The translations under genes were made by a program, and so were the position numbers. Shown here one piece after another: positions 23,001 to 61,643 of a DNA stretch of 64,000 nucleotides; position 1 is the stretch's first letter, and each line of letters starts with the position of its first letter. The notes below the pieces were generated by a model. It had not been told where the DNA came from, did no database searches, and saw only the letters and a list, made by a program, of their open reading frames with translations. Origin of the DNA: Eledone cirrhosa. Taxonomy: Eukaryota. Location of the stretch: the NCBI GenBank assembly GCA_964016885.1, contig OZ024742.1, forward strand, positions 260,958,001 through 261,022,000. Reading direction: 5' to 3'.

Positions 23001-23074
<74 letters not shown>

Positions 23075-23227
23075 AAGTAGGATTGGAAACAGCACAGAAA
23101 AATATTCTTAAAGAATCTGTTTTTCTTTTTTTCTTCTTTGATCCGATAAAGTGATATTATTGAAAAAATGAGAACAACTTAAAAAAAAAAAGGAGTTTTA
23201 TAAAGTATATAAAAAATATAAAATATA

Positions 23228-23636
23228 GAAGACCCGCCTTACCTAAATACATAGTAAAACCTACTACAGCCAGTAGGCATCTCTAACAAAATACACCCCG
23301 TCCCACCACCCCCACCCCATCCACCCCCCCTTCTATGTAAAGTTATGTCGGTGCCACGCCATCCAGGCCGAAACAAATGAGATCGTGTAGGTGTCACGAC
23401 AAAAAAACACACAGTCCACGCTGTAATGTGGCCGTGTAGGCAACACGGTAAAAAATTCCCAGACCCACACTGTAAATGTGGTTGGTGTTAGGAAGGGCAT
23501 CCAACTGTAGAAAACCTGCCAGACAGTCCTATGCGAGCAAGACAATCACTCTTGCCTCAAGTGGGAATACCCCCGTCCAAACCCATGCAAGCGTGGAACA
23601 CGGACGTTAAACGTTGATGATGATGATGATGATGAT
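23228..23636 (+). mobile_element. RTE 3' UTR fragment with (GAT)n tail
   Basis: Near-identical to the reverse complement of 39684-40095 and similar to 61.1-61.6 kb. Confidence 0.9.
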
Positions 23637-23809
23637 TACCGGTTTCAATGCATCGATGTAATCCATCTTATCAAATATTGTCACTTTGACGGATCAAAGA
23701 AGAAAAAGAGAAAAACAGATTCTTTAAAAATATTTTTCTGTACTGTTTCCAATCCTACTTTTTCTTTATAACCTCTGTTTTGTATAGAATCTTACTCCCT
23801 TTTCAAAAA

Positions 23810-23851
<42 letters not shown>

Positions 23852-24174
23852 GTGACGAAACATAAGTCAATTGCATGAACTCATAATCCTTTATTTACTG
23901 CTATATATATATATATATATCATGATTTTACTCCTGCATTCCATGCTGGCATGGGTTGGACAGGTTGTCATGCTCCAAGGCCAGATGGGTTGTAGTGATC
24001 TGTCTTGCTAATATGTAATATGCTTGGCAAGGTTTCTACAACTAGATATGCCCTCCCTAATGCATGGTGTGCTAGGTGTGTTTTCCATGGCATCACCACT
24101 ACCATTTATATAGTGACATTAGCAATATTGATTTTCCTTTTAGAAATTATTGTTTTTGTAATTTTTGTTTCCAG

Positions 24175-24211
24175 CTTCAACAAGGAACTGGTCAATATTG
24201 TGAACGGAACA
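24175..24211 (+). CDS. MFS exon 6 (IFNKELVNIVNGT)
   Basis: tttccag| and ACA|gtaagt; bridges phase 2 to phase 0. Confidence 0.82.
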
Positions 24212-25491
24212 GTAAGTTTACTTAAATGAATTGTGAAAACAAACCAATTAAGGCCAAAACATACTTCCGCGTTGATCAATTGCTGATCCTTTACAAAGCT
24301 CAAGTAAGATTTACATTAGAATACTATTCCAACACATAGGACAGTGCTGTTGCTTCTGCTGCTACACACATAAAAACAACACAAACCACATCCAACAGAA
24401 GGATATCCAACTGATTGGCAAACACTTACTCTCTAACAGACACACTATCCTATTGATAGTATAACAGATACACTTCCTTTCAAGCTGCAAGTTTTTTATC
24501 ACCTTCATTCAAACATCTTATGAAACATCCATAAATAATCCTCTGTCACTCTTAGTGTCATACTTCCCAATCTTTCTTTACCATGACATCAACCTGCTGA
24601 AATTTGCTCACCACCGAAAAATCTCTTACAATGTTGATTTACAGGTGTTCAAATTGTTTAAGCCTCATTGATTTCTCCAATTTTGGGAGATAGTGTTGAG
24701 TGAGGACCAGTGGTGGTGCTGTAAAGATCATTGCCACTTCCTCTTCTTCCCGACTAAGCAGTAAAAAAAACATAGGAGAGAAATATTTCTTTGCCATATT
24801 TCTTTTTAAAAAAGTATTGCTTATAATTTTCAAGTTATAACTTTGAAAATAAACAAGAATTTGGAGCATAACATAAAAGTTCTTACATAAAATTATGATG
24901 AAAAGTGTTTTGATAAATACAAACAATTTGAAATAAACAGTTTTGTATCACAAATCTTAGGGCTGTTTCAGGTGATTTGGTACCAAAAGGGTTAAAGGTG
25001 ATTGGAGAAATTCCTCTTATTGGATTGTATTATAGTTATACAACTGCCAGAGCTGTTAGGGAAGGAAAGTACGGTGAATTTACTGGTTGAAGAAACATCA
25101 ATTCATACTCTACCACTTTAATTTGTATAGTTCTTATAAAAGACACAGCATTTGATTTTCAAGTTATTTTGAAAATAGTCAAGAATTTGGAGGGATTTAG
25201 TAACTTTCTCATTATTAAGCTGGTGTTTGGAATATAATTTAATGAAAGTTCTTACATAAAATTGGATGGAAGATTTTTAGATAAGTATAAACAGTGATTG
25301 CAAGGGATATGCAAAATCTGGAGAGAAATGAAGTGAGAGAGAAACTGGGTATAAGAAGAATCAGATGTAGTGTACAAGAGAGAAGATTGATGGATATGTG
25401 ATGCACATGGATGATGATCGTTGGGTGAAGAAGTGTTAAGAAATTCCAGTACACTTTGTAAAGTAGTCAGTGTTAGGAAGGGCTTCCAGCC

Positions 25492-25760
25492 ATAGAAACC
25501 ATGTCAAAAAGCATTGAGAGGACTCTCCAGTTATAACATAACAACTTCTCTAGTGCTGGTCCCCCCCAAAATGCACTTAGTACATATATGGTAGTTGGTG
25601 ATAGAAAGGGTATTTAGCTGTAGAAACCATGTCAAAAAGCATTGAGAGGACTCTCCAGTTATAACATAACAACTTCTCTAGTGCTGGTCCCCCCCAAAAT
25701 GCACTTAGTACATATATGGTAGTTGGTGATAGAAAGGGGATTTAGCTGTAGAAACCTTGT
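25492..25760 (+). repeat. Near-perfect ~129-bp tandem duplication within an RTE-tail/SINE relic
   Basis: tagaaaccatgtcaaaaagcattgagagg... occurs at 25492 and 25621. Confidence 0.85.
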
Positions 25761-26125
25761 CAAAAAAGAGTCGAGAGGCTTTCAATTATGTCAAGGGTAT
25801 GACATCCTCTCTAATATTAATGATCTACACGATAAATGCACCAAGTGCACTCTATAATGTAGTTGTAGAAAACCTGACAAACAAAGGGTTGTGAGGACTC
25901 TTCAGCTGTGTCAAAGACATGACAATTTTCCTAGTGCAATGATAAAATGCACCCAGTGCACTCTGTACAGTGCAGGAACATATGTAAGTGAGGTACAGTC
26001 CCTTGGCCCATCTAAGAGGTCAGTATCTCTAATAGAATACTGACTTGGTTTGTGAGGATCCATCCAACCTCCGCTAGCAGAGAAAATGAACATTAAAGGA
26101 TGATGATTATGATAAATGTATGTAT

Positions 26126-26212
<87 letters not shown>

Positions 26213-26272
26213 CCAAAAACTACAGGGATTGAAGGTTCAAGACCTTAGGGGTATGTCAAATAACCAATCTCT

Positions 26273-26339
26273 TATGTTTTATCTGATGAAAGCGTACTCA
26301 AAAACCATTGTATCCTTGAAATATGTATAATAAAATATA
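26273..26339 (+). ncRNA. Minimal type I hammerhead ribozyme motif (PLE-type)
   Basis: tatgttttat-CTGATGA-aagcgtac[12 nt]gtatcctt-GAA-ATAtgTAT-A-ataaaatata: 10-bp stem I, 7/8-paired stem II, short stem III, AUA cleavage triplet. Confidence 0.75.
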
Positions 26340-26399
26340 TACTTTGGTTATGAAAATATTTCTCATTTATTAATATTTTGAATATCATATATATATATA

Positions 26400-27040
26400 T
26401 ATATATATACAAAGTTGTATTCCTGTCTGTCTGTTTGTTTGTTCACGAACTCCTCCTATGGTTTTGGAGATAGACCCCCATAACCATACATATTCTGAAA
26501 CTACATTGCCCAGAGTACTTGGATAAGTATATTTCATTTTAATCAACGGGTTCCCCGCTGAAAATTTTTTCCCTTCGGTTTATATGAAATTTAAACCATA
26601 GGTAAATGACAAGATATGATGCCTATTCACAAAATTTCAGCAAATTTCAATAATATTAAGACACCCTAATGGGTTAAACCCCCTGTTAGGGTTCCCCTGG
26701 GGCACAACCCCCGCTGAAAATGTTTTCTCTTTGATTTATATGAAATTTAAACCATAGGTAAATGACAAGATATGATGTCTATTCACAAAAGTTTTGAATT
26801 GATATTTTGAAAAAAATTATTTACAAGAAACAAAATAAGAATAAGATTTAATAATGCAATTTTGATTTGATATATTACAAAAAATGATGTTTTCCAATTT
26901 TTCATGCATTATATTTTACATTGAGTAATATTGAAATGAAGAGTTTTTCTCCATAAATTATATCACTGATTTAAAATCAATCATCATTTTCTTACAAAAA
27001 AAAATGTGTGAAACGCAGCAAGGCGCGGGTAATTTGGCTA

Positions 27041-27041
<1 letters not shown>
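26400..27041 (+). mobile_element. Non-autonomous Helitron-like element
   Basis: 5' (TCTG/TTTG)n tract; 3' GC-rich imperfect hairpin cgcagcaaggcgcggg followed by CTAG|T at 27038-27042; internal ~80-bp duplication (26553, 26708). Confidence 0.7.
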
Positions 27042-27077
<36 letters not shown>

Positions 27078-27080
<3 letters not shown>

Positions 27081-27552
27081 TAGGAAAGAAGGTTGACATG
27101 GTTTGCTATACAAAAAAGGTTTTTAATCTCATAGCTGACAATTGTTTCTCTGAACTGGTAGGTCTAGAGATCGCTATTCGCTTATTTTCGCGTTACTCGA
27201 TCGCCAATACAAAATTATAACCAGTCAGATCTTCGGAGCATGCGAGAATGAAGAAAATACACAGGCAAGAAAAGAATATACAGGCTACTATATGAAGTAG
27301 TAATGGCATTCAATTAGGTGGGGGGTATAATGTATCTAACGTTACGGCGTGTAAAACTAGCTGTCATGAGGCAGAAGTAAGAGTTTGGCATGTACAGAGT
27401 ATCGAAGTGTGTATCAATTTTAAATTATAAAGATAAGCCAGTGTTTACAGTCTTTCTCTTCATCTTCAATAGTATACATGAGTGGGACAACACTGTCAAA
27501 GCTAAATAGTTGTTGAGTTAATACAGAGGTTAACAAAGTAATATACGCATAT

Positions 27553-27615
<63 letters not shown>

Positions 27616-29625
27616 CACATGCATGTGTACATAGACACATACATACACATCAATATACACTCGTACAAAAATATACATACATGCAAAGAGATAAGCGTGC
27701 TAATTGTAATTATTGCAAAAGGAAGGTAAAGTTACATTGTAGTAGTGATGTGAGAAAAACTAGGATTTAGGATCAAATGATGGCAGCAGCTGAGAAGGAA
27801 TAAGTTTGTGGGTAGATGAGGTACTTACAGACATTTGTGTGGTATAGACTTGTGAAGGATATAGTATACTTAATGAAAATTTCTGTGGGTAGTAGGTATC
27901 CTAATTTAAAGCTATGTTGTGTTGGTTCGATTCACGGAGGTTTGAATCTTATGAATTTAGTGGCAATTCTATGTCTGCAGAAGATAGATCTTTCTAACTT
28001 ATTGTTAAGTAGCCTTTTTACATTTTTGAGGATATACAATAGCTCAAGATCACATAGCCCGCAGTGGGACATCCCTGTACTATAGGTTTTAGCAGCCGAC
28101 AACTTCGACCAGTTGATACTGTAGTTAGTGCTACTGTCCTTCAGTTCCCATATTTTTTTGGCGAGGGTTGTGGAACCCATAAGTGCACGGTTTTTCATTG
28201 AGTGTCTGTGCACATACCATTTTTTTTTAAAAGAACTCGCGGTGGATCCTATGTAATTCCAGGTGGAATTACCCGAGATGACCGTGCACATGTACACTAG
28301 GCTCGAATCGAGACATCTGTTCGCCAATGGGTACCTATCTGGTAGATGACAGTTACAGTTTGAGGCGCTATTTTGTGCAGCTTTTACATTCCTGTTTAGT
28401 ACTCTGTTATAAGTGGGTTGTGATATATGCCCAATGGGGTTTTGCTGCTGCGCGTTTGTATGCGCTTGTGGTTGTGATGTTGTGATGTGTTTGTGCTTAT
28501 AATTAGGTGCTACGTTATGTATAGGTGCAGTTGATTTACTAGAGATATTTCTGTGGTTGATCTTGCGTATGTGTGATTCTATGTTTGCTGCTGTTGAGTA
28601 TGAGAGTTTTATAGTAGATCTATTGAGTATTTTGTGATATCTATGCGAGATAGGGAAGTGTTTATCTATTAGTTTAAAGAATGTAGAGGGCAGTCTAGTT
28701 TTTATAGAGGAGTTGAATATTGGGTTGAACCATAGGTATTTTCTTTGTCTGTTTCTTCTATTGTTTCTTGGGTTTACATTATTAGTGTTTTGGCCGTTTA
28801 CTCCAGGTGTTACGTGTCTAACCCTATGTCTAGTCAAGTTATTTCTATTATTATGTGAGCGGTTGGAGTAGTAATTACTAGGATTGTTTACGTTGTCCTT
28901 ATTCACTATATACTGCAGTTTATCTTTATGACCAGCCCTACGTAATGCTGCATTATAATAGTCAGCATGCTCGTTAAAGATTTCTAGGTTTGAGGATAAG
29001 CGGGATATTCGGAGGGATATACTACATGCTATGGACCTAATTATGGATTTGGGGTGATTTGAGTTGTTAGTCCTTCTAGCCGCTATTATTATTTCAATTT
29101 CATCATGGGTAAGATCAGAGTTATTTTGGGCAAATATAAGCACCTTATCTAGGGTAGCTGGGGATATGGATGCATAGTAGTCGTCTATATCAAATTGTAT
29201 GAAGTTACACGTCTCCTATTTTGTATTTTATTGAACCATTTAATTGCCTCGTTAGTGTTGCCCCATAAATTGATTTCTAGTTTACCCTTTATTTGTGTGA
29301 TTACCCTATCTAGAATGTTCTTGCTAATTTTACCTATGTTTTACTTGGATGGGCATATTAATCTAATGGTGGGATTAGTTTCAAAGTTATTTTTGTGATC
29401 CTTCAGGTTAAATGTTGGGTTGCACGGGGTTAGCGGTTCGGTCCTATCTGGAATTCCGAGTTTATTAACTATCTTGAGGCCCTCCATGTTAATGCTGGTG
29501 AGTGTAGATTCATTTGTTTTTTTATATTTTTTATGTAGTTCACGCTGGATAAAGTTATTGTATGTGTTAATGTCCATAGAGTATACGTTTGATGTTTTGT
29601 CTGCTTTTACTATGATACTGTTAGT
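27078..29625 (-). mobile_element. Penelope-like retroelement, 5'-truncated and with the RT core deleted, within (TA)n
   Basis: GIY-YIG domain (LVYMC...YIGST...CGLC...LLN...CRH) in ORF 27932-29143; N-terminal RT pieces (LKDHK...NPTIRLI; DIDDYYASI); hammerhead in the 3' pLTR. Confidence 0.92.
27128..27246 (-). ncRNA. Hammerhead motif in the PLE 3' pLTR, with U4C core and extended stem II
   Basis: ctcgcatgct-CCGAAGA-tctgactggt...accagttcaga-GAAAC-aatt-GTC-agctatgag. Confidence 0.72.
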
Positions 29626-29682
29626 GGAATACCATAACTGGACTTTACCTAAGTGGACTGCATTTAACTATTATTTGTTACC

Positions 29683-29736
<54 letters not shown>

Positions 29737-29864
29737 ATATATCAATGTCAAAACGCTTATCAGCACAGCAACAGATAGGAACAACAACAAAATATGAATA
29801 CGTCCGAGAGCACGCAGGGAGGCGGAGAGAAATTAGACAGTAGAAGTCGCATTGATAGACACAT

Positions 29865-30515
29865 TTTTCAAATGCAGGAGGGCGCTATAGAAGTGGTGGA
29901 TAGCTTCCGGCACCTAGGAGATCAGATTAGCATGGGAGGAGGGTGTTCCGAAGCCATAGTATCTAGAATAAGGACGGGTTGGAAGAAGTTTAGGGAGCTG
30001 CTTCTTCTGTTGACGAAGAAGGGTTTCTCCCTGCGTACAAAAGGCCGGTTGTATGATGCCTGTGTGAGGAGCACAATGCTGCATGGTAGTGAGACATGGT
30101 AGTCAGCAACTGCAGAGGATATGCGACGGCTGGAGAGAAATGAGGCAAGCACGCTCCGTTGGATGTGCAGTGTAAATGTGCGTGAAAGACCCAGCATAAA
30201 TGTGTTGAGAGAGAAACTGTGTCTGAGAGGGATAGAATGTAGTGTACGGGAGAGGAGACTGAGGTGGTATGGACATGTGATGCGCATGGAGGATGACCGA
30301 TGGGTGAAGAAGTGCCAGGAAATGCTGGTTGAAGGAAGACGTGGTAGAGGTAGACCACGAAAAACATGGGCGGAGGTGGTGAGAACAGACCTCAGATCAT
30401 TGAAGCTCACGGTGGAGATGACGAAGGACCGTGACGAGTGGAGAGATGCTGTGCTGAATAAGACCTGTCCCACCCTTGCAAGCAGGGAAAAGTGGACGTA
30501 AAATGATGATGATGA
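29865..30515 (+). mobile_element. RTE 3' fragment, young
   Basis: EVVDSFRHLG...MLHGSETW*...RLRWYGHV...GRPRKTW; (GAT)n tail. Confidence 0.93.
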
Positions 30516-31245
30516 TATATATATATATATATAATGGTCGTGGAGGTGCCATAGCAAAGGAGCACCCAGCACTCACTGTAAATGAGGTTGGTGTTAGGAA
30601 GGGCATCCAGCTGTAGAAATCAAGCCAGCATCACTTCCCGTCCCACCCTTGCAAGCAGGGAAAAAGCGGACGTAAAATGAAATGATGATGATGATGATGA
30701 TGATGATATATATATATACATATATACATATATACATACTATGAAGGTGTGTGGCTGAGTGGTTAGAGAATTGGATTCACAATCTTGAGGTTCGATTCCT
30801 GGACCGGGCGATGCGTTATGTCCTTGAGCAAGACACTTTATTTCACGTTGCTCCTTCTACCTGGAGTTGCAACCGATAGATAGTACTAGCAACTGGAAAG
30901 ACCTGCGGAAACATTGTTTCCTTGGTCCGATTTGACGAAAGTCGATCGTTCCTTTTATATATATATATATACACAGTGAACTTCTGCAAATTTCCTCTAT
31001 GTAACTTCACTGGTGAACCTGAGGTTATAGCAGAAGACACTTGCCCAAGAGTGACACCAGAACCATGCTGCAAATCAAACTCCTTAACCACACAGCCATA
31101 CATATACCTTGCTAAATTTTTACATCTTTATTTTTTTTATATATTTTTTTTTCTTTCTTAATTTATTTCTTCTTATTTTCCTTTTTCTCTTCCTTTTATT
31201 CTTATTTTTTCTTTGTTTTTCATTTTACATTCTTTTATTTTCCAG

Positions 31246-31402
31246 TGTGTCCGCAGTTTGGAGTTGAAACGCTGTGGACCCTACAATACTACTCAGAAAT
31301 CCCAGTCACAGGGGAAGCTAAAATTAGTGTCAGTCCCTCAGAATTCTTTCAAGAATGAATACCATTTGCTGAGTATTCATTCCCCATTTGCTGGCAATAC
31401 AT
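31246..31402 (+). CDS. MFS exon 7, hydrophilic loop (CVRSLELKRCGPYNTT...PFAGNT)
   Basis: Long polypyrimidine tract, tccag| and T|gtaagt; phase 0/1. Confidence 0.85.
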
Positions 31403-32080
31403 GTAAGTAGACACTTCATATATTTTAACATACATTTTTTAAGCAGCTTTGAGGACAAGGAATGAGCTTAGAAACAAGAGAGTAAGTTTTTGGGCTCCAA
31501 GTAAACAAGTGGACTTTCAAAACAATGAGGAAGTGTTTAAATCATTGAGAAATTACTCAACCTACTAATTTTCCCTTCAATAAATCAGCAATACAGTAGA
31601 ATTAGCCTATTACAAGCATGGATAATGTTACCAAATTGTTACATAATTGTTACCAAATTGTTATTATTACCGAAATTAGTGGCCCAAAATCTGCTCAGGA
31701 TATTGTTATCTAAAAATATCCATTCCAAAGTGATCACAATAAGCAACTTTCACTGTACAGTAATATCTTGGTTGCCATATGATATAAGCTTCTAAAAATG
31801 CAGTGCACTATATGGGGTTATTATGATATAGCATAAATAGAAACTCTAGCTTGATAGGCTATTTAACAGTGATATGAATACAAATTAAAAAGATAGACAA
31901 GTCATAACAGCTTCATTGCAAAAATTGTAACAAATAACACAAAATAAGTTACATTACACTTTGCACCTCCTAACCCTTTGAGAGGTTTTTTCCATAACCC
32001 TTTAAATTTGTTAGTAGTATAGCTTAATCTGTTAGCACTGTATAACTAATCATAGTAGTAAGATAATATAATACATTTAA

Positions 32081-32185
32081 AATAAAAAAAATAAAAAAAA
32101 TAAAAAAAATAAAAAAAATAAAAAAAATAAAAAAAAAAAAAAAAATAAAAAAAATAAAAAAAATAAAAAAAATAAAAAAATAAAA
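32081..32185. repeat. (AAAAAAAAT)n 9-mer repeat
   Basis: Visible directly. Confidence 0.9.
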
Positions 32186-32551
32186 ATTGAGAAAAAAAAC
32201 ATGCTATTGTCAAATTGGTAAGACAGTCAACTAGCATGTAATAGATATGTGATTGATACCTCATCTGTGAACCTCTTACTATTTTCTCTCTCAAGTTGGT
32301 AATAACAGCAGTTAATTCATAATTGAAAAATCTTTATGTTGCCTATAATGGTATCATTAAATGTATATAGAAAAATGCACCCAATCCATGCTGTAAAGTG
32401 ATTGGTGATAAGAAGTGCATCCAACCAGAAAAAATCCTGCCAAATTCTGAAAAGCATAACCTACCATACTGTCCAAGCCATGCAAGTATAGAAAAATGGA
32501 CATAAAATGTTGATGATGAAGACAGTTTAATAAAAAGATATAAAACCAGTA

Positions 32552-33648
32552 TATAATGGCGGCGAAGATTCGAAACTGAATCTGAGCTTTCTCGCCTCTG
32601 GGACAAGCCGTGGTTAGTTGTTTCGCCCGGCAGACCAACCCCTTGGGAGATGCTAAACACAGGTTAGATGTTTTTTACGCCTGGCAGAAAAGAGGTCAGA
32701 TGATATATCCATCCTTCTAAATTCAACTGTTGTAAATACAAGGGTTGTTTACGCCCGGCAGACCAATCACTTGGGAGATGCTAACCACAGGTCAGATGAT
32801 ATATCCATCCTTCTAAATTCAACTGTTGTAAATACAAGGGTTGTTTACGCCCGGCAGACCAATCACTTGGGAGATGCTAACCACAGGTCAGATGTTGTTT
32901 ATGACTGGCAGAAAAGAGGTCAGATGATATATCCATCCTTCTAAATTCAACTGTTGTAAATACAAGGGTTGTTTACGCCCGGCAGACCAATCACTTGGGA
33001 GATGCTAACCACAGGTCAGATGTTGTTTATGACTGGCAGAAAAGAGGTCAGATGATATATCCATCCTTCTAAATTCAACTGTTGTAAATACAAGGGTTGT
33101 TTACGCCAGGCAGACCAATCACTTGGGAGATGCTAACCACAGGTCAGATGATATATCTATCCTTTTAACTTCAACCCTTGTAAATACAAGGGTTGTTTAC
33201 GCCCGGCAGACCAACCCCTTGGGAGATGCTAACCACAGGTCAGATGATATATCTATCCTTTTAACTTCAACCCTTGTAAATACAAGGGTTGTTTACGCCC
33301 GGCAGAAAAAGTGAGACCACAGATAAGAGAGGACATATTTCACCAACGCTGTCAATACTCCCTTCACGAAAAACTGTCTGTCCACTAATTTCTCACATGC
33401 CATTCCTACCTGGCTGATTGATTCTTTCAGATACAATACAAATTATATTATATAGTATTCTGTGATACTTGTATTTACGTGGCTCGAAGAACCACCAACT
33501 TATTGTACGAATATTTCATGTTATAGATTTTATCATTCAATATTCAAATTGAATATTGTTATAATAAAATAAACATTGTAACAACACAATCCTGGTATTA
33601 TTCTTTGCATTGAAACCATCATACCAACAATTCCACTTATTCGTTACA
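32552..33648 (+). mobile_element. Solo LTR-like element with an expanded internal tandem array
   Basis: Termini TATAATG...CGTTACA; 4-bp TSD AGTA (32548-51, 33649-52); AATAAA near the 3' end; homologous to 62343-63036. Confidence 0.78.
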
Positions 33649-33674
33649 AGTAAATTGAAGTATTTCTGTTGTAG

Positions 33675-33776
33675 TTCTTTATGTTACTTTCTACCTTGTG
33701 GTCACCAGTGCTTTTGTCCTCATAACAGTTCCTTACAATGCCATGGTGGCAGACAAGTCTCATCCATCTCAGAGAG
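33675..33776 (+). CDS. MFS exon 8 (FLYVTFYLVVTSAFVLITVPYNAMVADKSHPSQR)
   Basis: ttgtag| and G|gtaaga; PY.A..AD.....QRG motif. Confidence 0.92.
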
Positions 33777-33859
33777 GTAAGATCTCATTGAGTAGTATTT
33801 GTACACTCCTGTCTATATCACATATGAAATAATCAGAGAAATATTAAATAATTCAACAG

Positions 33860-34090
33860 ACTGGGTAATATATTGGTTTCTAATTTAGGCATAAAGCCAG
33901 TAGATTGGAGGAGGGGATAGTTGATTATATAGACCCCAGTACTTGATTGATACTTCATTTTATTGATCCCAGAGCAGTGAAATGCAAAGTTGACCTTGGT
34001 GGGATTTGAACTCAGCATATAAAGGGCCATAACTAAATGCTGCAAAGCATTTCGTCCGATGCTCTAATGATTCTGTCAATGCATCACCCT
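33860..34090 (-). mobile_element. tRNA-derived SINE
   Basis: Same core and B-box (gggatttgaactcag) as the other copies. Confidence 0.75.
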
Positions 34091-34701
34091 AGTGAACTGA
34101 AGCAAACTGAAATGATGGGTAACATGACAAGGTAATATTTAGTTCAGTCGTCTGTTGGATTGTTAGAACACTACTGAAGGCTTCATATTCATCAAGGGGT
34201 ACAAAGAAGGATCTCACAAGAAGTATTTCTTCTCACCTTGTATGACTTACAGGAAGACAAGGGCACAAAAGTTATATCTCTGTATGTGGGAAATATCAAT
34301 TCTAATAATATCCACTAGTGAAGGGACATGTCTGTAGAATGCTCAGTTACCACTTGCATCTTAATTTCCTGAGCTAGCTGTTCCACTGAACAAATAGAAC
34401 ATTCATCATCAAACTGGCAGAGGTCCAACAAACAAACAATAATATCCACTATTTCTAGGTCTTCATATAAGTCCATCTATAAGCAATCACAACAAAGTTC
34501 AGATGCTCCACCTTTCATGTAAGTCCATCTAAAAACAACCATTACACTCTTTTGATACTCCACTCTAAAATGTCTAATGAAATTTCAGTACAAATCATGT
34601 ACATTGTAATTTTAAAAATCTGATTATATATGAATTCCTGGTCTCTGAGAATTCTAGAAGATTAAGAAACTGCTTATTGATTCATTTTTAATTGTTTATA
34701 G

Positions 34702-34778
34702 GTTTTATATCTGGTGTAATGTCAACCTTAATTTTGGTGGGAAATGTCTCAGGTGCTGCTTTAGGAATATGCTACGAA
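34702..34778 (+). CDS. MFS exon 9 (GFISGVMSTLILVGNVSGAALGICYE)
   Basis: ttatag| and GAA|gtaagt; Gly-rich TM helix. Confidence 0.9.
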
Positions 34779-35159
34779 GTAAGTGAAATTACAGGAATAT
34801 TCTAGTATAATTTTTATTTTTAATATATATATATCTTTGTCATTGATTTACATCTGTTTTTTCATTGTTATATGTATGAACCTGTAATTCCTGATAGCGT
34901 TGTAGGGATGCCATAGTCACATGGTATTTCTCCAGGTTTGAATGCAGCTGATTTCTTTCAGAAAAGGAGAGAGAGAGTGATAGAGAGAAGAAGTAAGAAA
35001 GAGACATAAATGAAGAATCAACCCCAATACTGGAGTGACTCTTTATTTATGAAATGATGAAAAGCAAAGTTGATCTCACAAGATTTGAATTCAGAAAACC
35101 AGAATGAATATCATAAATCATTCTATCCAGCATTTTAATGGCTCTGCCGACTAGCCTGA

Positions 35160-36605
35160 TCACCATCATTATCATCGGGTCCTTCTCAGCATAGCATCTC
35201 TCCACTTGTCACATTCCTTTGTCATCTCCATTGTGAGTCTCAGTGATTGGAGGTCAGCTCTCACAACCTCTGCTCAGGTCTTTCTTGATCTACCATTACT
35301 GAAGCTTCCTTCCACTGGCATTTCAGATTCCTCTTAAGCCCAGCCTCTCCCTCAACTCGTCAAAGCTCTGCCTTTCTCTCACACTTACATTGCTCATCCA
35401 ATGGAGCATGGTTGCTTTATTTCTTTCCAGTCTATGCATGCCCTCTGTAGTTACAGACTATGTTTCACACAGGTATCATACAGTAATCCTTTTGTACATA
35501 GGGGGAAACCTTTTATGGTCAACAGTGGGAGTAGCTCTCTAAACTTTTTCCATCCTATCCTTATTCTAGCTATTATGCTCTCAGAGCACCCTCCTCCATT
35601 GCTAATTATGTCACCTTGATAGCAGAAGCTATCAACAACTTCTATGGGTCCTTCCTGTGTCTGGAATAGGTTTACATCACTGGCTCTCTTCCCCTCAGTT
35701 ATCCCTGAGCATCTTCTACAAACAAAGTCTTCCCTTCCTGTTAGTCTACCTGTTGTCCCACTACATCTGTGTACCTAAGATTTACATTGTGTAAATCATA
35801 TGTAATTTATGCTTACTCCCTTTCTACATATTGTGTAGGGCCACTTCCCTGAAGGAATCAGAGTTCTATCTTTAGTTTTGGCTAAGTTTAGTCCCAGACC
35901 TTTCAATTCTAAATTCTGTTTCCATAGTTGGAACTTATTTTCTAGTTCTTCAATGGATTCAGCTATAAGGACCAGATCATCTGCATAGAACAGTTCACAT
36001 GGGCAGCCAGTCTTAAACTCCTCTATTATAGCCTGGAGAACTATAAATTATAGTGGGCTAAGAACTGAACCCTGATGAACTCCTACTTGTACCTTGAATA
36101 CCTCACTAAACTCATTTCCTACTCTCACTTTACTGAACTCTCTGTACATGGCTTGCACTGTTCACACAAGTCATTTTTCTGCACCTATTTTTCCTAAGGA
36201 CCATAACAGATTGAGGTACTCTGTCAAATGCTTTTTCTAGATCAACAAAAGCTAAATATAGTGGCTTATTTTGGGCTAAGAATTTCTTTTGTAGTTACCT
36301 CACTAAAAAGATGGCATCTGTAGTACTTTTCCCAGGCATGAAACCAAACTGCATCTCATCTAATTTGACTCTTTCCCTAATTAGGTGGGCTATAACTCTT
36401 TCCATCTCTTTCATAACTTGGTACATTAGTTTTATTCTCTATAGTTGCTCCTTTCTAGGGTATCACCTTTGCCCTTATAGCAATTTATGATTGTACTGGT
36501 GTGCCAGTCATTGGGTATGACTTCATCCTGTATTATCTGATAGACTATGTGGGTTATATCTCAACAACTATCTCTGATGGTCCTGCACCTTTACCATTTT
36601 TCATC
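35160..36605 (-). mobile_element. Decayed RTE LINE (RT + PHD)
   Basis: Reverse complement aligns by eye to 59.5-61.0 kb (MQFGF, DLEKAFD, VHQGSVLSP). Confidence 0.88.
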
Positions 36606-36879
36606 TCTCATCTCTTTGATACACATATATATATATAAATATAAGATATGGCCACCATCCCATCTGGGAGGACAGTAGCTCTGATAAAGTACTAACTTGG
36701 CTGGAAATGTCCTGTCCAACCCATACCACCCACAAAAGCTGGACGTTAAACGATAATTTTGTTCATAGGGGTGATATATATATCACCCCTCTGCACAAAA
36801 TTGTATTGACTAGGTGGGTGGTTGAAGTAGAAGATGCTTATGTTTCACATATTTAATTTTTACTTGTGAAGCTTTGCTA

Positions 36880-38135
36880 TATCATCATCATCATCATCAT
36901 CATCATCATCGTTTAACGTCCATGTTCCACGCTTGCATGGGTTTGGACGGGAGTTTTCCCACTTGAGGCAAGAGTGGTTGTCTTGCTGGCATAGGACTGT
37001 CTGGCGGGTTTTCTACAGCTGGATGCCCTTCCTAACATCAACCACATTTACAGTGTGGAACTGGGAGGTTTTTACCGTGTTACCTACACGGCCACATTAC
37101 AGCGTGGACTGTGTGTTTTTTTGTCGTGACACCTACACGATCTCATTTGTTTCGGCCTGGATGTTGTGGCACCAACATAACTTTACATTGAAAGGGGCGG
37201 TGTGGATGGGGTGGGGGTGGTGGGACGGGGGTGTATTTTGTTAGAGGTGCCTACTGACTGTAATAGGTTTCACTTTGCACTTAGGTAAGGCGGGTCTTCT
37301 CTATTACTGTGTAGCGCCAAAGATCTCGGTCCAGTGACATTGTCTTGGAGAGGTGTAAGTGTGTGAGGTCGGAATTTATCAGGTCGTCCCAGGTTTTTCT
37401 GGGTCTGCCTACTCTGTGGCTACCGTCTATCTTTATTGCCCTGCACTTTTTTATACAGCTGTCGTCTTTCATGCGCATCACGTGACCATACCAACGTAGC
37501 CTTCTCTCGAGTAAACAACATCTGATCCCTCTTATTTCTAATTTTTCCCTTAGTTCGTTTATGCTTTGCCGTTCGCGTATATTACTGTTACACATCCAGC
37601 AGAGCATGCAAGCTTCGTTCCTCTCTAGTCTGCGTATATCCTCTGCACACAATGCCCAGGTCTCACTGCCATGCAACATTGCTGTTCGTATGCAGGCATC
37701 ATACAGCCTGCCTTTCATTTTTAGGGAGAACCCTTTAGCGGCTAATAGTGATATAAGCTCTCTGAACTTTTTCCATCCAGTTCTGACTCTAGCTACTGTA
37801 CTTTCAGAGAACCCTCCCCCACTGCTGATTTTGTCACCCAGGTAACGGAAGCTGTCCACTATTTCTATAGAACCCTCTGCGCAATTGAAAGAGCTAGTAT
37901 TCTGTGGGCACTTGCTGCTACTTATTGCACCAGAGCACCGGCCACATGTAAAATCTATGTTCTTAGTTAGCTTACCTGTGATCCCACTACATCTTTTATG
38001 CACCCATACTTTGCATTTGGGACATAAAATGGAGTTTCTACCTACGCCTTTCCTACACACTGAGCATGGCCATGGCCATAAGACTTTAGTCTTAGCCAGG
38101 TTAATTTTAAGGCCTTTTGATTCTAGGCGTGCTTC
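36880..38135 (-). mobile_element. RTE 3' part with PHD-like finger, 3' UTR and (GAT)n tail
   Basis: WPCSVCRKGVGRNSILCPKCKVWVHKRC...RLRWYGHV...GRPRKTW. Confidence 0.95.
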
Positions 38136-38136
38136 C

Positions 38137-38173
<37 letters not shown>

Positions 38174-38360
38174 ACAGCATCTTAGGTAATAAGTTTGTTG
38201 TGTTACTAATGCAATACAAGTTATTGACAAGAGAGTGAAGAAATTTGATGTTTCCATTATTGAAGTTTGTTGCCTTATGCTGTTTATGAATAAAGAAATT
38301 ATTGATATCTACATATGACCTTCTCAATTACCATCATTGTATATATGTATATATATATAT

Positions 38361-38518
38361 ATTTGAAATGTAGTCTACATTTTGAATTTCATATTTTCTC
38401 AATACCTCTTAAGTCAACCATATATATATAAATATTTGCTCTACGGTTCTTATATATTTGATATGTATTTATCCTTAACGAGCCCTCTTTGGATTTTAGT
38501 GTTCAAATTTACTATTAT

Positions 38519-38566
<48 letters not shown>

Positions 38567-38625
38567 GGTTGACTTAAGAGGTATTGAGAAAATATGAAAT
38601 TCAAAATGTAGACTACATTTCAAAT
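38361..38625. repeat. Inverted repeat with ~70-bp near-perfect arms
   Basis: atttgaaatgtagtctac...gtcaaccata versus tatggttgac...gtagactacatttcaaat. Confidence 0.92.
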
Positions 38626-38678
38626 TCATCTTTCTATCTATCTAATCATCTTTCTCTCTCTCTCTGTATATATATATA

Positions 38679-38774
38679 TATTCATTAGTTAAGCAAAACA
38701 AGACCACAAATTTCACAAGGAAGACATTATTAAAAGATTGTCAACATATTTTAGTTTGATGTAAGGAATGTAGA

Positions 38775-38806
<32 letters not shown>

Positions 38807-39495
38807 TTAATAATAATAATGTCCGTTTACAATTGTTTCGCTACTCCATATAATATTTCTGGATCAGATGACTATATATCATTATTGATCTGGTTCAGTT
38901 GAAAATAATTAACATATTTAAAAACAGAGCGGCTCATCGGAATTTCAAAGGAATATAAATTAAAATAAGGAGAGAATGTTACATAATGTAATGTTCCCTA
39001 ATGTAATGTTCCATAATGTAATGTTCCATAATGTAATGTTCCATATATTGGTATTTCACTATGGTGTCCTGGTTGATCAGTTGTCAGCCATAATCAAGCA
39101 GTATTCATCTGTCGAGGCTGCATTGTGTGAGATCTGCCTATGGGTAACAAGATGGCTGACAACTGATACAACCAGGAAATACCAATATATTGAACATTAC
39201 ATTATGTAACATTCTCTCCTTATTTTAATTTATATTCCTTTGAAGTTCCGATGAGCCGCTCTGTTTTTAAATATGTTAATTATTTTCAACTGAACCAGAT
39301 CAATTATGATATATAGTCATCTGATCCAGAAATATTATATGGAGTAGCGAAACAATTGTTAACAGACATTATTATTATTAATATTATTATTATTATTCTC
39401 TACATTCCTTACATCAAACTAAAATATGTTGACAATCTTTTAATAATGTCTTCCTTGTGAAGTTTGTGGTTTTGTTTTGCTTAACTAATGAATAT
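38679..39495. repeat. ~815-bp fold-back palindrome with a hammerhead motif in each arm
   Basis: Arms of ~370-400 bp around a ~55-nt spacer (about 39095-39150). Motifs at 38822-38946 (-) and 39243-39366 (+). Confidence 0.93.
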
Positions 39496-39683
39496 TTTCA
39501 GCTCTGCGCACCTAACTTCTGCATGAACCCAGCCACCTAGCTGCTTTCTACTGCATATTGCACATTGAGCACATGCCTTTACGCTTTGGCTTCTAACTAA
39601 TTCACCAATCTCTCCTCTCCTATCTCCTCTCCTATCTCCATCTCTCTCTTTAAGATTGGTTACTCTTGAACTATATATATATA

Positions 39684-53860: not shown

Positions 53861-56452
53861 CAAAGGTTCTCAACGGGGGGCATATGCAGGGGACGTTTTG
53901 GAACTCCAGGGGGGAATTTTGGAACAAGGGGGCATCAGGGGGCGCTAGGGGGCACTGGAAGGCTCTTTACTTTGGTAAGTTTTATAAGCCATATTTGTAT
54001 GTCTCTGAGACAGCCAGTGTGAATGCATTTGAATGAGCATGCAGACAGCATAACTATGGTCTGACTGCAGCTGTTAGCAGGTGTGCAGGCGTGTCTAAAC
54101 ATTAACCGGTAATTGAGATCCTAAAAATGGAAAAAACCCACAGTCAACTGGGTCAAGGACACTTTGAGCGCAGCCAGTTAGAATATTGTCTTTGCTTCAC
54201 CAATAACAATGTATTTCATGTCTGAAATTATTGACTCAACTGTAACGAGTTAACACTATGTAGATCTATTTTATTCCCTATTGTATAAATAATATTACAA
54301 ATAAAAAAGAAAAGAAAAAACACAAAAGCGGGTAGCACACACATCTAGGACTACATACAACACATAAGCAGGTAATACACACATCTAGGACCACATACAA
54401 CTCATAATCAGGTAGCACACACATCTAGGACCACATACAACACATAATCAGATAATACACACATCTAGGTCTACATACCACACATAAGCAGGTAATACAC
54501 ACATCTAGGACCACATACAACACATAAGCAGGTAATACACACATCTAGGAGCACATACAACACACAAGCAGGTAATACATACAGCTGGGACCACATGCAA
54601 TACATAAGCAGGTAATACATACATCTAGGACTGCATACAACACACAGGGAGGTAATACATACATCTAGGACCACATACAACACACATTGTATCATGTGCT
54701 ACGGATGACGCAAGAGCAATGGTCGGTCAACCTAAGGGTTTCTTCACTCTTCTGAAGAGAGAAAATCTATCTGTATTTGCTGTTCATTGTGTCATTCATC
54801 AACAACACTTGGCTGCAAAGAAACTCAGCAAGGAATGCTGTGAAAACATTCCTGGTCAAATTGAATGTCATCGAAAGGAATCTTTGTTGACGGGAATTCT
54901 ATAATTTTCCTAGTGTCGACAATGTTCAAAACATTGTAAGCGATGACCAACTCCAAATTTATACCGCTCACTTCTGTGCTCTACAAGACAACATGAGAGA
55001 ACAGTTTGTTGACCTTTTGCCGATGGACATCCCAATGTGGATAGCAGATCCCTTCATAGCTACTGCCGACGATTTGGACGTTAAATTTCAGGAAGAATTC
55101 ATTGAACTTCAAGCAGATAACATGATCAAAATTAGATTTCCTAAAATAGGTGAACCCCTTTTTTGGATGCAAGAGGAAATTCAGCATCGATTTCCACTCC
55201 TACATGCAGAGGCTAAGAGATTTGCTCTGCCTTTTCCAAGCTCATACTTAATCGAGAGGAGGTTTGGTGCAACCGCTACAATGTAATTACACGTGGAGAT
55301 CGCTAGCTACATCTTACGAAAATTCAGCCTCATGTCAAAGAGTTAGCTAGACTCCATGAAGCTCAAGGATTCCATTAAAATGAGGTCAAAGTTAAACTAA
55401 GTTGATTTATCCGAAAACTTGGGTATGCTATTGTTACAAAGCAAACTAACAATTTTTTTTATTTGTAGTTGCAGTCTGACTGTAATTCACTTACTCATTT
55501 GTTGTATATATTTTACCATTTACTAATAAATATACCCTCTTATATAGTCATGAAAACCCTCTTCCACGGTCTCTAAGTTCACAAAGAGGAGGGGACATCA
55601 AGTTAGATATCAACATTTATTCTGTCTGTTTCAATAAAAGGAAAATTGGAAAGCTTTGAAATGATATAATTGCCACGTTCTTCCAGATAAGACCACTCTT
55701 TGGATAGACAGAGTTGCTCTTGTATAAATGTTCAAAATAGCCTGTATCGCCTGGTGGGAATATAACAAATTCAACTGGTCCTTCAGCAGCACCGTTTTAC
55801 ATCCGTTCTTCCATGCTAGCATGGGTTAGACAGGTTGTCCTGTTGTGGGCAGTGTCCGGTCGGCTGACCTTGTCTTGCTCATACTGGAACTGATTCTGGC
55901 TTGATTTCTACAGCTGGATGCCCTTCCTAACACCAACCTCATTTACAGTGAGTGCTGGGTGCTTTTTTCCGTGGCGCCTACACGTCCACTTTTACAGTGT
56001 GGGCTGGGTGCTTTTTTTGCCATGGCACCTCCACGACCACTTTGCAGTGGAATGATAGGGACCCCAGTCCTATCATCTCATTTCTACAGCTGAGTAAACT
56101 GGAGCAATGTGAAATAAAGTGAAACAACACATCACCCAGTCCGAGAATTGAACTCACAACCTTTAGATTGCAAGCCCAATGCTCTAACCACTAAGCCATA
56201 CGCCTTCCTTATTCATAAAAAAGAACATTTATGTTACTTTTTTTGAAATTTATATATTTCCTTTCAAGGAATGTATTTATACTCTCAGCTGCCTGCAATG
56301 GTATCTTTGGAATATTGTTAATCAATTTTTTAGTAATCGACTGATATCAAAATCATTAGTATATTGAAAAATGGAAAAATAGGGTAGGGGGCGTTTCGTG
56401 ATTTTGAGGGACAAAAGGGGGCGTTTGGCCTAAAATGGGTTAAGAACCTGTG
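53861..56452 (+). mobile_element. hAT (Charlie/Buster-like) DNA transposon, internally deleted
   Basis: 8-bp TSD ATCTAGAC on both sides; TIR CAAAGGTTCTCAAC / GTTAAGAACCTGTG; remnants TDDARAMVG, HCVIHQQHL, FPSSYLIERRF. Confidence 0.92.
54320..54690. repeat. 40-bp minisatellite (~9 copies) inside the hAT element
   Basis: Unit cacataagcaggtaatacacacatctaggaccacatacaa. Confidence 0.93.
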
Positions 56453-57859: not shown

Positions 57860-60800
57860 GATGGACTATAGAATTCTGGAGAGTCTGAAGAATCTGGACA
57901 CTCAATGACAATGTCAGAGATAAAGATAAATTCACCTCATGTTGCCGGATGAGAATGCAAGGACTCCTCTTTATTTCAGACGCGGATGGCTAACATACGC
58001 CATCTCCCTCACCCCTCCCTGCACCTCCAGCCCATGCCTTCCACCCACCAAATGAAATCCCAAACTTCAGAGTTGGTACCATGATTGTAGGCACTTTAAA
58101 AGGTCATCTAGAGATGCTTGAACATAAGGAAGTTGATGTTTGCTGCGTTCAAGAGACTAGGTGGAGGGGTGGGTCTGCTAGATTCATTGTGGGTAAAAAA
58201 CGATGCTATAAACTTTTCTGGGTGGGAAATGAAAATGGGCTGAGTGGAGTAGGAATTATGTTAGCAGAAAAATGGGTAGATAAGATAATTGTTTCTACTT
58301 TTGGCACAAGGCCATCAATTACCCAGTACATTACTGGTACTTTATTTTATCGATGGGTAGATAAGATAATAGACGTAAATAGAGTGAACGACAGAATAAT
58401 TAAAATAAGACTTGTCCTAAATAGAACTACTGTGACAGTAATATCCGCTTACACACACCAATCTGGACTGCCTGGCGTTATAAAAGACAGATTCTATGAG
58501 TCACTAATGCTCACTACTTCCCAACTAACCGACAGTGACTACATAATTATTGCTGGCGACCTAAATGGTCATGTTGGACAACATTGTGACGGCTATGACG
58601 GAATCCATGGAGGCTATGGGTTTGGTACCAGAAATGAGGCAGGCTTCAGAATCCTGGAATTCTGTGACGCTAATAACCTAACTATCTGTAACACAAACTT
58701 CAAAAAACAAGACAATCACTTGATCACCTACAGATCGGGGGAACACACCAGTCAAATAGATTATATCCTTACCAGAAGACGTGACAAAGTGTCTGTTGTA
58801 AACACTAAATCTCTCCCCCCATGAAGAATGCACCTCTTAACATAGTCCCATAGTTAGCGACCTCATAGTCAGGATGAGACGTACTCGACAACAGAGGAGG
58901 ACTACCCTGAGAGGAGGAATATGGAAGTTAAAGGACCCCACAGCCAGTAACAAATTTAAAAGCATATTACTTGATGCTTTTGACAGTAAGGAAGGGCAAT
59001 AGAGACGTACAGTATAGAGGAACAGATGAAATCTGTGGCTGGAGCAGACCTATAGGCAGGAGGAGAGTAACATGGTGGTGGAACAGTAAGGTGGAAGAGT
59101 CAATCAAGGCCAAAAAGCAAGCTTGGAAAGTATGGCGGGATGGAGGAAGTAGACAAGACTATCAAGTGGCCAGGAGGGAAGCTAGGAGACAAGTGTACTT
59201 CGCAAGAAGGGAAGCAGAGGAAAGAAAGTTCAAGCATGTTCTACAACGCGAGGATCAAAAATGTGAGGTGTTCAGGATTGATAGACAATGTATCAACGAA
59301 CACTATGATATTGTCAGGGAGAAGTGTGTCCGTAATGATGATGGTATACTTGCCATCACTGATGCTGATAAGAAGGTAGCTTGGAAGTGTCACTACAAGA
59401 GGCTACTAAATGAGGAGAATAAATGGGAAAAAGAAAGTCTGCCCCAAATCGATCCAATAGAGGGACCAGCAGTGCAAGTTGAAGGTAGTATAATAAGTAA
59501 GGCAATCAAAGATATGAAGACAGGCAAAGCAGCTGGGCCTTCGGAGATAGTTGCTGAAATGCTGAAAGCATCTGGATTGGTGGGACACACTATGGTCACC
59601 CAGATAGTAAACCAAGTCATACAGAACGGGGTCATACCAATTGACTGGCGCAGCATTAACTGCTACAAGGGTAAAGGAGATGCCTAGATAGAGGAAGCTA
59701 TAGAGGCATTAAATTAATTGACCAGGTTATGAAGGTCACAGAAAGAGTTATAGCACAACTAATCAGAGAGCGAATTGATCTAGATGAAATGCAGTTTGGG
59801 TTTGTGTCAGGTAAAAGTACCACAGACGTTCTTTTCCTTGTACGACAGCTACAAGAGAAGTACCTAGCTAAAAGCAAACCCCTCTACTTAGCTTTTGTAG
59901 ACCTGGAGAAAGCCTTTGACAGAGTCTCCCGCTCCATTATCTGGTGGGCTCTTAGAAAACTAGGTGTTGATGAATGGCTTGTGAGAGCTATACAAGCCAT
60001 GTATAAAGAAACAGTCAGCAAGGATAGAATTAACATCGAATATATTGAAGAATTTAGCGTAAAAGTTGGTGTTCATCAGGGCTCTGTCCTTAGTCCCCTC
60101 CTAATTATTATTGCCCTTCAGGCTATAATAGAGGAGTTCAAGACCGGCTGCCCATGGCTCTTCTATATGAAGATGATCTAACACTTATAGCTGAATCGAT
60201 GGCTGAACTAGAGAAGAAATGGAAGCATGGCCTAGAATCAAAAGGCCTTAAAGTTAACTTGTCTAAGACTAAAGTTCTAGTATGTAGGAAGGAAAATAGG
60301 GCACTGGTCCCCTCTGGGAAATGGCCATGCTCAGTGTGTAGGAAAGGAGTAGGCAGAAACTCCATTTTATGTCCCAAATACAAAGTATGGGTGCATAAAA
60401 GATGTAGTGGGATCACAGGTAAGCTAACTAAGAACATAGATTTTATATGTGGGCAGTGCTCAGGTGCAATAAGTCGCAAGTGCCCACAGGATACTAGCTC
60501 CTTCCATTGCACAGATGGTTCTATAGAAATAGTGGACACCTTCCGTTACCTGGATAACAAAATCAGCAGTGGTGGAGGGTGCTCTGAAAGTACAGTACCC
60601 AGAGTCAGAACGGGATGGAAAAAGTTCAGAGAGCTTATACCACTATTGGCCGCTAAAGGTTTATCTCTAAAAATGAAAGGCAGACTGTATGATGCCTGCA
60701 TACGAACAGCAATGTTACATGGCAGTGAGACATGGGCATTGTGTGCAGGGGATCTGCGCAGACTGGAGAGGAACGAAGCTTGCATGCTCCGCTGGATGTG

Positions 60801-61643
60801 TAATAGTAATATACGTGAACAGCAAAGCATAAATGAACTAAGTGGGAAATTAGGAATAAGAGGGATCAGATGCTGTTTACTCGAGAGAAGACTATGTTGG
60901 TATGGTCACGTGATGCGCATGAAAGATGACAGCTGTATAAAATAGTGCAGGGCGATCAAAATTGATGGAAGCTACGGAGTAGGCAGACCCCAAAAAACCT
61001 GGGACGATAAATTCCAACCTTACACACTTACACCTCTCGAAGACAATGTCACTGGACTGAGGTCTTTGGCGCTACGCAGTAATACAGACCCGCCTTGCCT
61101 AAGTACAAAGCGAAACCTACAGTCAGTAGGCACCTCTTAACCAAAAATAAACCTGGGACGATAAATTCCAACCTTACACACTTACACCTCTCGAAGACAA
61201 TGTCACTGGACTGAGGTCTTTGGCGCTACGCAGTAATACAGACCCGCCTTGCCTAAGTACAAAGCGAAACCTACAGTCAGTAGGCACCTCTTAACCAAAA
61301 ATAAACCCCATCCCACTACCCCTACCCCGACCCCCATCAACACTTCTCTGTAAAGTTATGTTGGTATCACAACATCCAGTCCTAAATAAATGAGGTTGTG
61401 TAGGTGTCACGACAAAAAAAAAACACAGTCCACACTGTAATGTGGCTGTGTAGGTAACACAGTAAAAACCTTCCAGTCCACACTGTAAACGTGGTTAGTG
61501 TTTGGAAGGGTATCCAGCCGTAGAAAACCTGCCAGACAGTCCTATATGAGCGAGTCAACCAATCTTGCTTCAAGTGGGACAATTCCCATCTAAACCCATG
61601 CTAGCGTGGAAGATAGACGTTAAACAATGATGATGATGATGAT
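57860..61643 (+). mobile_element. Near full-length RTE LINE (APE-RT-PHD), decayed, with (GAT)n tail
   Basis: VQETRW, GDLNGHVG, SQIDY, MQFGF, DLEKAFD, VHQGSVLSP, LYEDDL, PHD-like finger; several frameshifts and stops. 5' boundary approximate. Confidence 0.95.

Follow-up and report, generated by a model that had tools for sequence, protein, structure and literature searches.

Cytidine at position 4 of the hammerhead core as the norm of Penelope-like element families in Eledone cirrhosa

Searches for hammerhead ribozymes treat the uridine at position 4 (U4) of the core CUGANGA as invariant. A stretch of 64,000 nucleotides (nt) from Eledone cirrhosa (the window; positions 260,958,001–261,022,000 of contig OZ024742.1, assembly GCA_964016885.1) raises the question of whether whole retroelement families can have a cytidine there (C4) instead. 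The host is an animal with an AT-rich genome of 3.0 Gb in which microsatellites are abundant, and an earlier note on the window had claimed a CCGA core for three otherwise unrelated repeat families. All five flagged 7-mers were found at their reported positions: CCGAAGA at 27236–27230, CCGATGA at 38940–38934 and 39248–39254, and CCGATAA/CCGTCAA at 23143–23149 and 23692–23686. Only two of the families, here called B and C, have a C4 core in the window, while the core of the third, family A, is UUGAUAA with a normal U4. In B and C, C4 is the family norm and not a product of decay.

Family B is present in the window as a 5′-truncated element at 27042–29693 (−), with a short inverted piece at 29625–29693, as delimited by blastn of a full-length copy at locus L141 (81–97% identity). 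The core CCGAAGA (C3-C4-G5-A6-A7-G8-A9; 27230–27236, −) is the family state. It is followed by a long stem II of 81 nt (UCUGACUGGU...ACCAGUUCAGA; 27149–27229, −) and by GAAAC-AAUU-GUC (27137–27148, −), which contains the palindromic stem III and places the predicted cut after 27137; stem I of this copy is GCU/AGC. An open 3′ part of the B frame, 427 amino acids long (27932–29215, −), covers the end of the reverse transcriptase (RT), the WFNP region, a CxCX5C linker and a GIY-YIG-type endonuclease. Family C occupies 38678–39679 as two 5′-truncated arms in inverted orientation, the coding part being absent here. Its core CCGAUGA lies at 38934–38940 (−) in the left arm, with GAAAC-AAUU-GUA at 38839–38828, and at 39248–39254 (+) in the right arm, with GAAAC-AAUU-GUU at 39349–39360; the stem II region measures 94 nt. 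The arrangement of core, stem II and GAAAC-palindrome-GUH that had been ascribed to every family is seen with a C4 core in B and C. Within the window, a strict hammerhead descriptor accepts the motifs at 27236 (−) and 39248 (+) and rejects that at 38940 for a single stem I mismatch, and no hammerhead is among the 19 Rfam matches at E ≤ 1. A descriptor strict for CUGA overlooks C4 cores, as the note had said.

The family state was read from homologous arms. A query that excluded the core gave 36 B arms, of which 32 have CCGAAGA and four are truncated at the core, so that CTGA was seen in none; four arms in this count are counted twice via overlapping loci. Choosing B arms by their endonuclease (30 loci) gave CCGAAGA in 26/26. 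C arms chosen in the same way have CCGATGA in 20 of 22 cases, plus one CTGATGA and one CCCATGA, and a biased set with the core in the query gave CCGATGA in 35/37. One long C copy, L192, carries CTGATGA in both arms. In contigs from two DNA runs of a single sample, which may not be independent, no other letter exceeds 5% at position 4, and positions 7 and 9a vary. An 808-codon frame is found in four B loci (L141–L144), and in three of them (L141–L143) this intact frame is accompanied by CCGAAGA in both terminal repeats. The near-complete C copy L191 has CCGATGA in both repeats and a frame with one frameshift. These arm counts contradict the view that B and C are U4 families in which isolated copies have mutated to C4. 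The note's argument against decay also holds, since decay would run from C4 to T, and CTGA, CCAA and TCGA are seen as rare copies only. Two subfamilies of B differ in stem III, which is either palindromic (ACAATTGT-C) or non-palindromic (ACAAATGT-A; loci L111–L144), the intact element L141 being of the second kind. A B subfamily with CCGATGA was found at L206.

In family A the hammerhead lies at 23637–23679 (−). Its true core UUGAUAA (23674–23668) is a U3-A8 core and is followed by GAAAC-CG-GUA at 23646–23637. Homologues have the layout aatat-TTGATAA-gatg...catc-GAAAC-CG-GTA-atatt, in which the core, TTGATAA in 28/33 arms, directly precedes stem II (GATG/CAT(C/T)) and stem I is AATAT/ATATT. 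The CCGTCAA that was flagged as a core (23686–23692, −; the same 7-mer at 23143–23149, +) is a piece of family A flank brought beside the ribozyme by an inversion. It is CCGTCAA in 18 of 34 copies and CTGTCAA in seven, has neither A6 nor G8, and normally sits on the opposite strand, ∼100 nt past the ribozyme; the inversion junction is the sole reason that it precedes the core at 23692. The TTGATAA core of the homologues and the position of the 7-mer in the flank rule out family A as a C4 variant. The seven CTG copies indicate that CpG decay acts on old copies in the direction that the note had argued. The arm at 23143, described there as truncated, in fact continues to ∼23226. An unrelated dispersed repeat (23222–23638; more copies near 36887 and 39682) is inserted just 3′ of the predicted cut site and splits the element, and the reverse complement of the ribozyme follows. 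The predicted dimer of family A does not fold as a hammerhead. The U3-A8 core of family A has been reported from Schistosoma elements (PMC4209133); here and below, comparisons refer to the available parts of the published sources.

The hammerheads of this genome were sampled in 1.33 Mb of sequence, made up of 133 pieces of 10 kb taken at even spacing along the seven largest contigs. Here, 144 matches to a relaxed descriptor were obtained, against 0 and 1 in two shuffles, which shows that the motifs are real sequence features and not chance. They comprise 122 C3-U4, 15 U3-U4, six C3-C4 and one C3-A4 core, a tally that undercounts C4 because the descriptor does not accept family C. Of 201 copies assigned by homology, 15 belong to C4 families and 13 of those have C4, which extrapolates to ∼34,000 copies genome-wide (19,000–56,000). 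The proposed enrichment in this lineage is therefore real in so far as C4 recurs in further families, but C4 is not dominant (∼4% of descriptor hits, 7% of homology-assigned copies) and most families are U4. Overall, hammerhead density is 108–151 per Mb in 35 clusters, or ∼3–4.5 × 10^5 motifs by genome-wide extrapolation (L145–L160, L194–L310; 1.33 Mb); for retrozymes of the axolotl, up to 120,000 copies have been given (PMC7229834). Retrozyme-like arrays of ∼310-base tandem repeats, each with a canonical hammerhead, were also seen, with 11 units in the L298:10–3400 region (−) and five matches in L305.

Further C4 families were sought by following C4 matches with core-free queries. Family E, in 19 rows, has 11 CCGATGA, one CCGATAA and one CCAATGA, as well as two CTGA that come from sister subfamilies; the remaining four rows are cut. 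Family F, which has a stem II of 20 bases, has C4 in 20/22 rows and U4 in none, and further members of it were found along with L206. For E′, a sister of E, there are 116 exact C4 matches versus 0 in the control, and the single sampled intact copy is U4. We conclude that C4 is family-fixed in at least two or three families beyond B and C. Families D, G and H and cluster 6 were rejected as C4 families, the C4 of the seed copy being sporadic and the family U4. Within family H there may be a C4 subgroup in which CCGATGA, TCGACGA and TCTACGA go with a common stem II variant (L361, L356, L351). Adenosine-to-inosine (A-to-I) editing was considered as a feeder of T-to-C changes and rejected: position 4 in 186 copies of non-C4 families showed five C versus four A or G, and two of these five C are family-A-type or decayed rows.

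The C4 families keep the rest of the hammerhead. Each of B, C, E and F has C3, G5, A6, G8, A9, G12, A13, A14, A15.1-U16.1 and H17 of a type I hammerhead, while at one defining position, that of U4 in the uridine turn, all four have C4. These core positions are kept although the stems are wholly different between the families, stem II measuring 20 nt in F and ∼80–95 nt in B, C and E. Three stems surround the core and stem III is palindromic, although stem II of C has just two firm closing pairs. The predicted dimers of B, E and F take the hammerhead fold with an open core and an intermolecular stem III. We rejected the idea that C4 is a folding switch, as swapping position 4 in silico had no consistent effect in 12 families. 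At L051, a repeat with a long perfect hairpin lies upstream of GAAACAATTGTA; a recognisable core is absent from it.

By motif tests, B and C are Hydra-clade Penelope-like elements. A Pfam scan of the element proteins gave no family match, so the assignment rests on motifs and homologues. Both proteins have RWK, DKT, the CxCX5C linker, and CxxC and CxH flanking a conserved E and N, which are features that define the Hydra clade (Craig et al., 2021, PMC8557442). The WFNP/WYNP matches in the supplement of that paper, among those listed, are all Hydra-clade rows. As described for this clade, which has also been listed from Octopus bimaculoides (PMC8557442), there is a single frame with RT and, at the C terminus, a GIY-YIG endonuclease, the insertions are into (TA)n, the 3′ repeat carries a hammerhead, and inverted 5′-truncated copies and terminal pseudo-repeats occur. 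The length differs from the clade's usual <3 kb, a tendency and not a rule (PMC8557442): the B unit of L141 measures 3505 bases between predicted cut sites, and stem II reaches ∼95 nt. The Hydra-clade rows of File S2 (PMC8557442) also differ from the families found here in that their cores are all ctga with a short stem II, whereas several families here have ccga. The B and C proteins are 39% identical, i.e., related yet distant, and the two families cannot be called otherwise unrelated. Homologous proteins numbered 71, the best being 37–42% identical. Metagenome contigs contained no locus for the B protein, and a scan of them for the C4 pattern gave at least 120 stretches, with stems in none of the 80 matches examined.

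To follow position 4 through the history of the elements, we built a protein tree with 21 rows, namely 17 of this genome and four database homologues, with pieces joined by X and two rows less than half filled; the published Hydra proteins are not among the 21 rows. B, E, the E′-linked frame and one U3-A8 family form a group (100/100), a second U3-A8 family is the partner of F (99/96), and C weakly joins F and this partner (81/89). F is tied to its protein only via inverted neighbouring copies at two loci, and E′ via one, and families A, D, G and H are outside the tree because their protein linkage failed or was ambiguous. A single origin with the C4 families alone as a clade was rejected (p-AU 8e-64), as was a sister relationship of B and C (p-AU 2e-6). 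A clade of all variant-core families, defined after the tree had been seen, was not rejected (p-AU 0.167) but appears in 0/200 bootstrap trees. As judged from this protein tree, position 4 has changed at least three times, either by gains or by one gain and two losses. It would thus have changed repeatedly among the Hydra lineages of this genome, alongside sister families that use U3-A8. The motifs of F and of U3-A8 cluster 9 align without gaps, and a third group with stem III ACGATCGT includes U4 and U3-A8 cores as well as a single C4 copy, with compensatory changes in stem I (L029, −; L027, −; L245:6864; L160, −; L256:2927). In both B and F the core is preceded by TGCT and followed by GAAACAATTGT..AGC (window 27137–27246 vs. 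L242:203–258), although the identity between their proteins is only 36%. There may have been an exchange of the ribozyme module.

How could elements with such a core succeed? The ends of the copies lie away from the predicted cut site. For B the 3′ ends are found past it, at +61 in 40 and at +237 in 26 of 77 arms; of the remainder, four continue into the frame, two belong to another family and five are scattered. For C they are at +135 in 28/62 and at +323 in 22/62 arms, one unexamined arm being scored as zero. The 5′ ends around four full-length B elements are at −11, −18, −77, −126, −458 and −484, none at the cut. From these ends we infer that copying likely used RNA that the ribozyme had not cut. 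This resembles the PAc Poseidon element of the green anole, a Penelope-like element of another clade for which the available text reports no C4 core. Uncut RNA is its template, reverse transcription starts internally at two sites and leaves tailed ends, hammerhead mutants insert in vitro, and cutting needs protein (PMC11167929). A viroid has the same substitution (Ambros and Flores, 1998, as cited in Perreault et al., 2011, PMC3088659); there, U4C lowers activity in vitro and is still active enough in vivo to permit infectivity. The viroid sequence is a rare variant of an RNA replicon, unlike the C4 described here, which is the consensus of DNA-encoded families.

Given the copy ends, the anole element, the viroid and a mutational scan considered below, we take C4 to mark a core that still works, but slowly, and on which demand is relaxed. 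Probably, the C4 hammerhead is a slow ribozyme that acts only as a dimer and that persists since uncut RNA likely serves as the elements' template. Two motifs would pair via the palindrome ACAAUUGU to form stem III, and C4 would weaken the uridine turn and slow the cutting. Low or protein-assisted cutting would still be needed, which would keep the other core positions fixed, and slow cutting would be tolerated since the RNA that is copied would be uncut.

Several observations weigh against this reading. In a deep mutational scan of a type III hammerhead, mutants of the CUGA turn had low activity except for a C-G swap (PMC9901934), so C4 could be near-dead. Uncut templates are not peculiar to C4, as the anole element, with C3 and G8 in its core, behaves alike (PMC11167929). 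Not every C4 copy stands for a family: D has CTGA in 15/18 rows, G has T in 11/13 and H is U4, the C4 copy being a one-off. In family D, which is U4, stem III is the same and stem II is long too, and we found no compensating feature that is common to the C4 families and absent from the U4 families. The predicted C dimer misfolds. A set of 13 F rows and a U3-A8 relative does speak for a fold that is still kept, as 92.9% of cells are paired and 6/15 pairs show two-sided change versus 2.3 in shuffles (1 of 500), but five of these 14 rows were found by the CCG pattern and the rows are related; a narrower F alignment of 18 rows pairs fully, with covariation not above shuffles (410 of 500).

The mutational scan, the B copy ends that never map to the cut site and the in vitro insertion of another element without cutting (PMC11167929) would all fit a motif that no longer cuts and whose fold is retained as a signal at which the element protein binds or pauses. 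We consider this improbable, as G5, A6, G8, A9, G12, A13, A14, A15.1-U16.1 and H17 are kept in B, C, E and F at protein identities of 30–57%, position 17 is restricted to A, C and U, and the natural U4C of the viroid is sufficiently active (PMC3088659). About equally improbable is that the element protein or distant contacts compensate for C4, such that cutting in the cell equals that of U4 and the change is neutral. C4 is carried by young, very active families, the anole hammerhead requires protein for cutting (PMC11167929), and the sampled F subfamilies show no reversion though a C-to-T change would restore U4. On the other hand, a shared compensating change was not found, the length of stem II is far from uniform among B, C, E and F, and the in silico swap of position 4 affected folding inconsistently.

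Very unlikely is a DNA-level cause for the retention of C4, for instance that TCCGA of the terminal repeat overlaps with a promoter or a site for a protein. A T does precede CCGA in all of B, C, E and F, and in L141 the first Met follows ∼380 bases downstream of the motif, but a T is common there in U4 families too and the flanks differ between families. We give hardly any credence to the explanation that the C4 copies arose as isolated mutants within U4 families, for which the earlier note had looked to a CTGA family consensus. This is true of D, G, H and cluster 6, in which the seed was C4 and the family is U4, and false for B, C, E and F, and so it is refuted for both window families. The slowed, dimer-only ribozyme thus remains our preferred explanation of C4.

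In other respects the motifs are like the metazoan Penelope hammerheads of Cervera and De la Pena (2014, PMC4209133), which are of type I with a palindromic stem III, a predicted dimer and an additional base where stem II begins, and which have low activity in vitro. The available text of that paper does not mention U4C, and two CCGA matches in one of its two supplements are not cores. A CYGANGA descriptor that allows C or U has been applied to deep-sea RNA viromes, with C/T degeneracy reported (PMC13481778); those hits come from viral metatranscriptomes, with no family-level analysis in the available text, unlike the retroelement families described here. In the literature searched, which did not cover the variant catalogue of Lunse (2017), we found no report of C4 as the consensus of a retroelement family. 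Whether the variant had already been described, a point that the note had left to be checked, therefore has a divided answer: the substitution U4C is not new, being known from the viroid and allowed by a published descriptor, while C4 as the consensus of retroelement families appears to be unreported.

Two further features of the window were seen. A tRNA-like Rfam match of 33 bits at 56137–56200 (−) is possibly the head of a short interspersed element (SINE), and pieces of another retroelement-like frame occur as inverted copies at 37281–38327 (+), 37384–38073 and 60321–61007.

Taken together, young and successful retroelement families have C4 as their norm, and their copies are missed by CUGA descriptors and by Rfam. 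These families bear on the role of hammerheads in Penelope-like elements, and because close relatives differ in just this core (U4, C4 or U3-A8), the relation between cutting speed and the success of an element can be tested directly. A bolder proposal, which we put forward tentatively and hold to be rather unlikely, is that Hydra elements repeatedly tune their ribozyme down, from the canonical core to C4 or U3-A8 in at least two sub-clades, with C4 actively favoured since fast cutting would destroy the template or message. If so, this genome would hold matched sister ribozymes with U4, C4 and U3-A8 cores, a natural series in which to test what the Penelope hammerhead is for.

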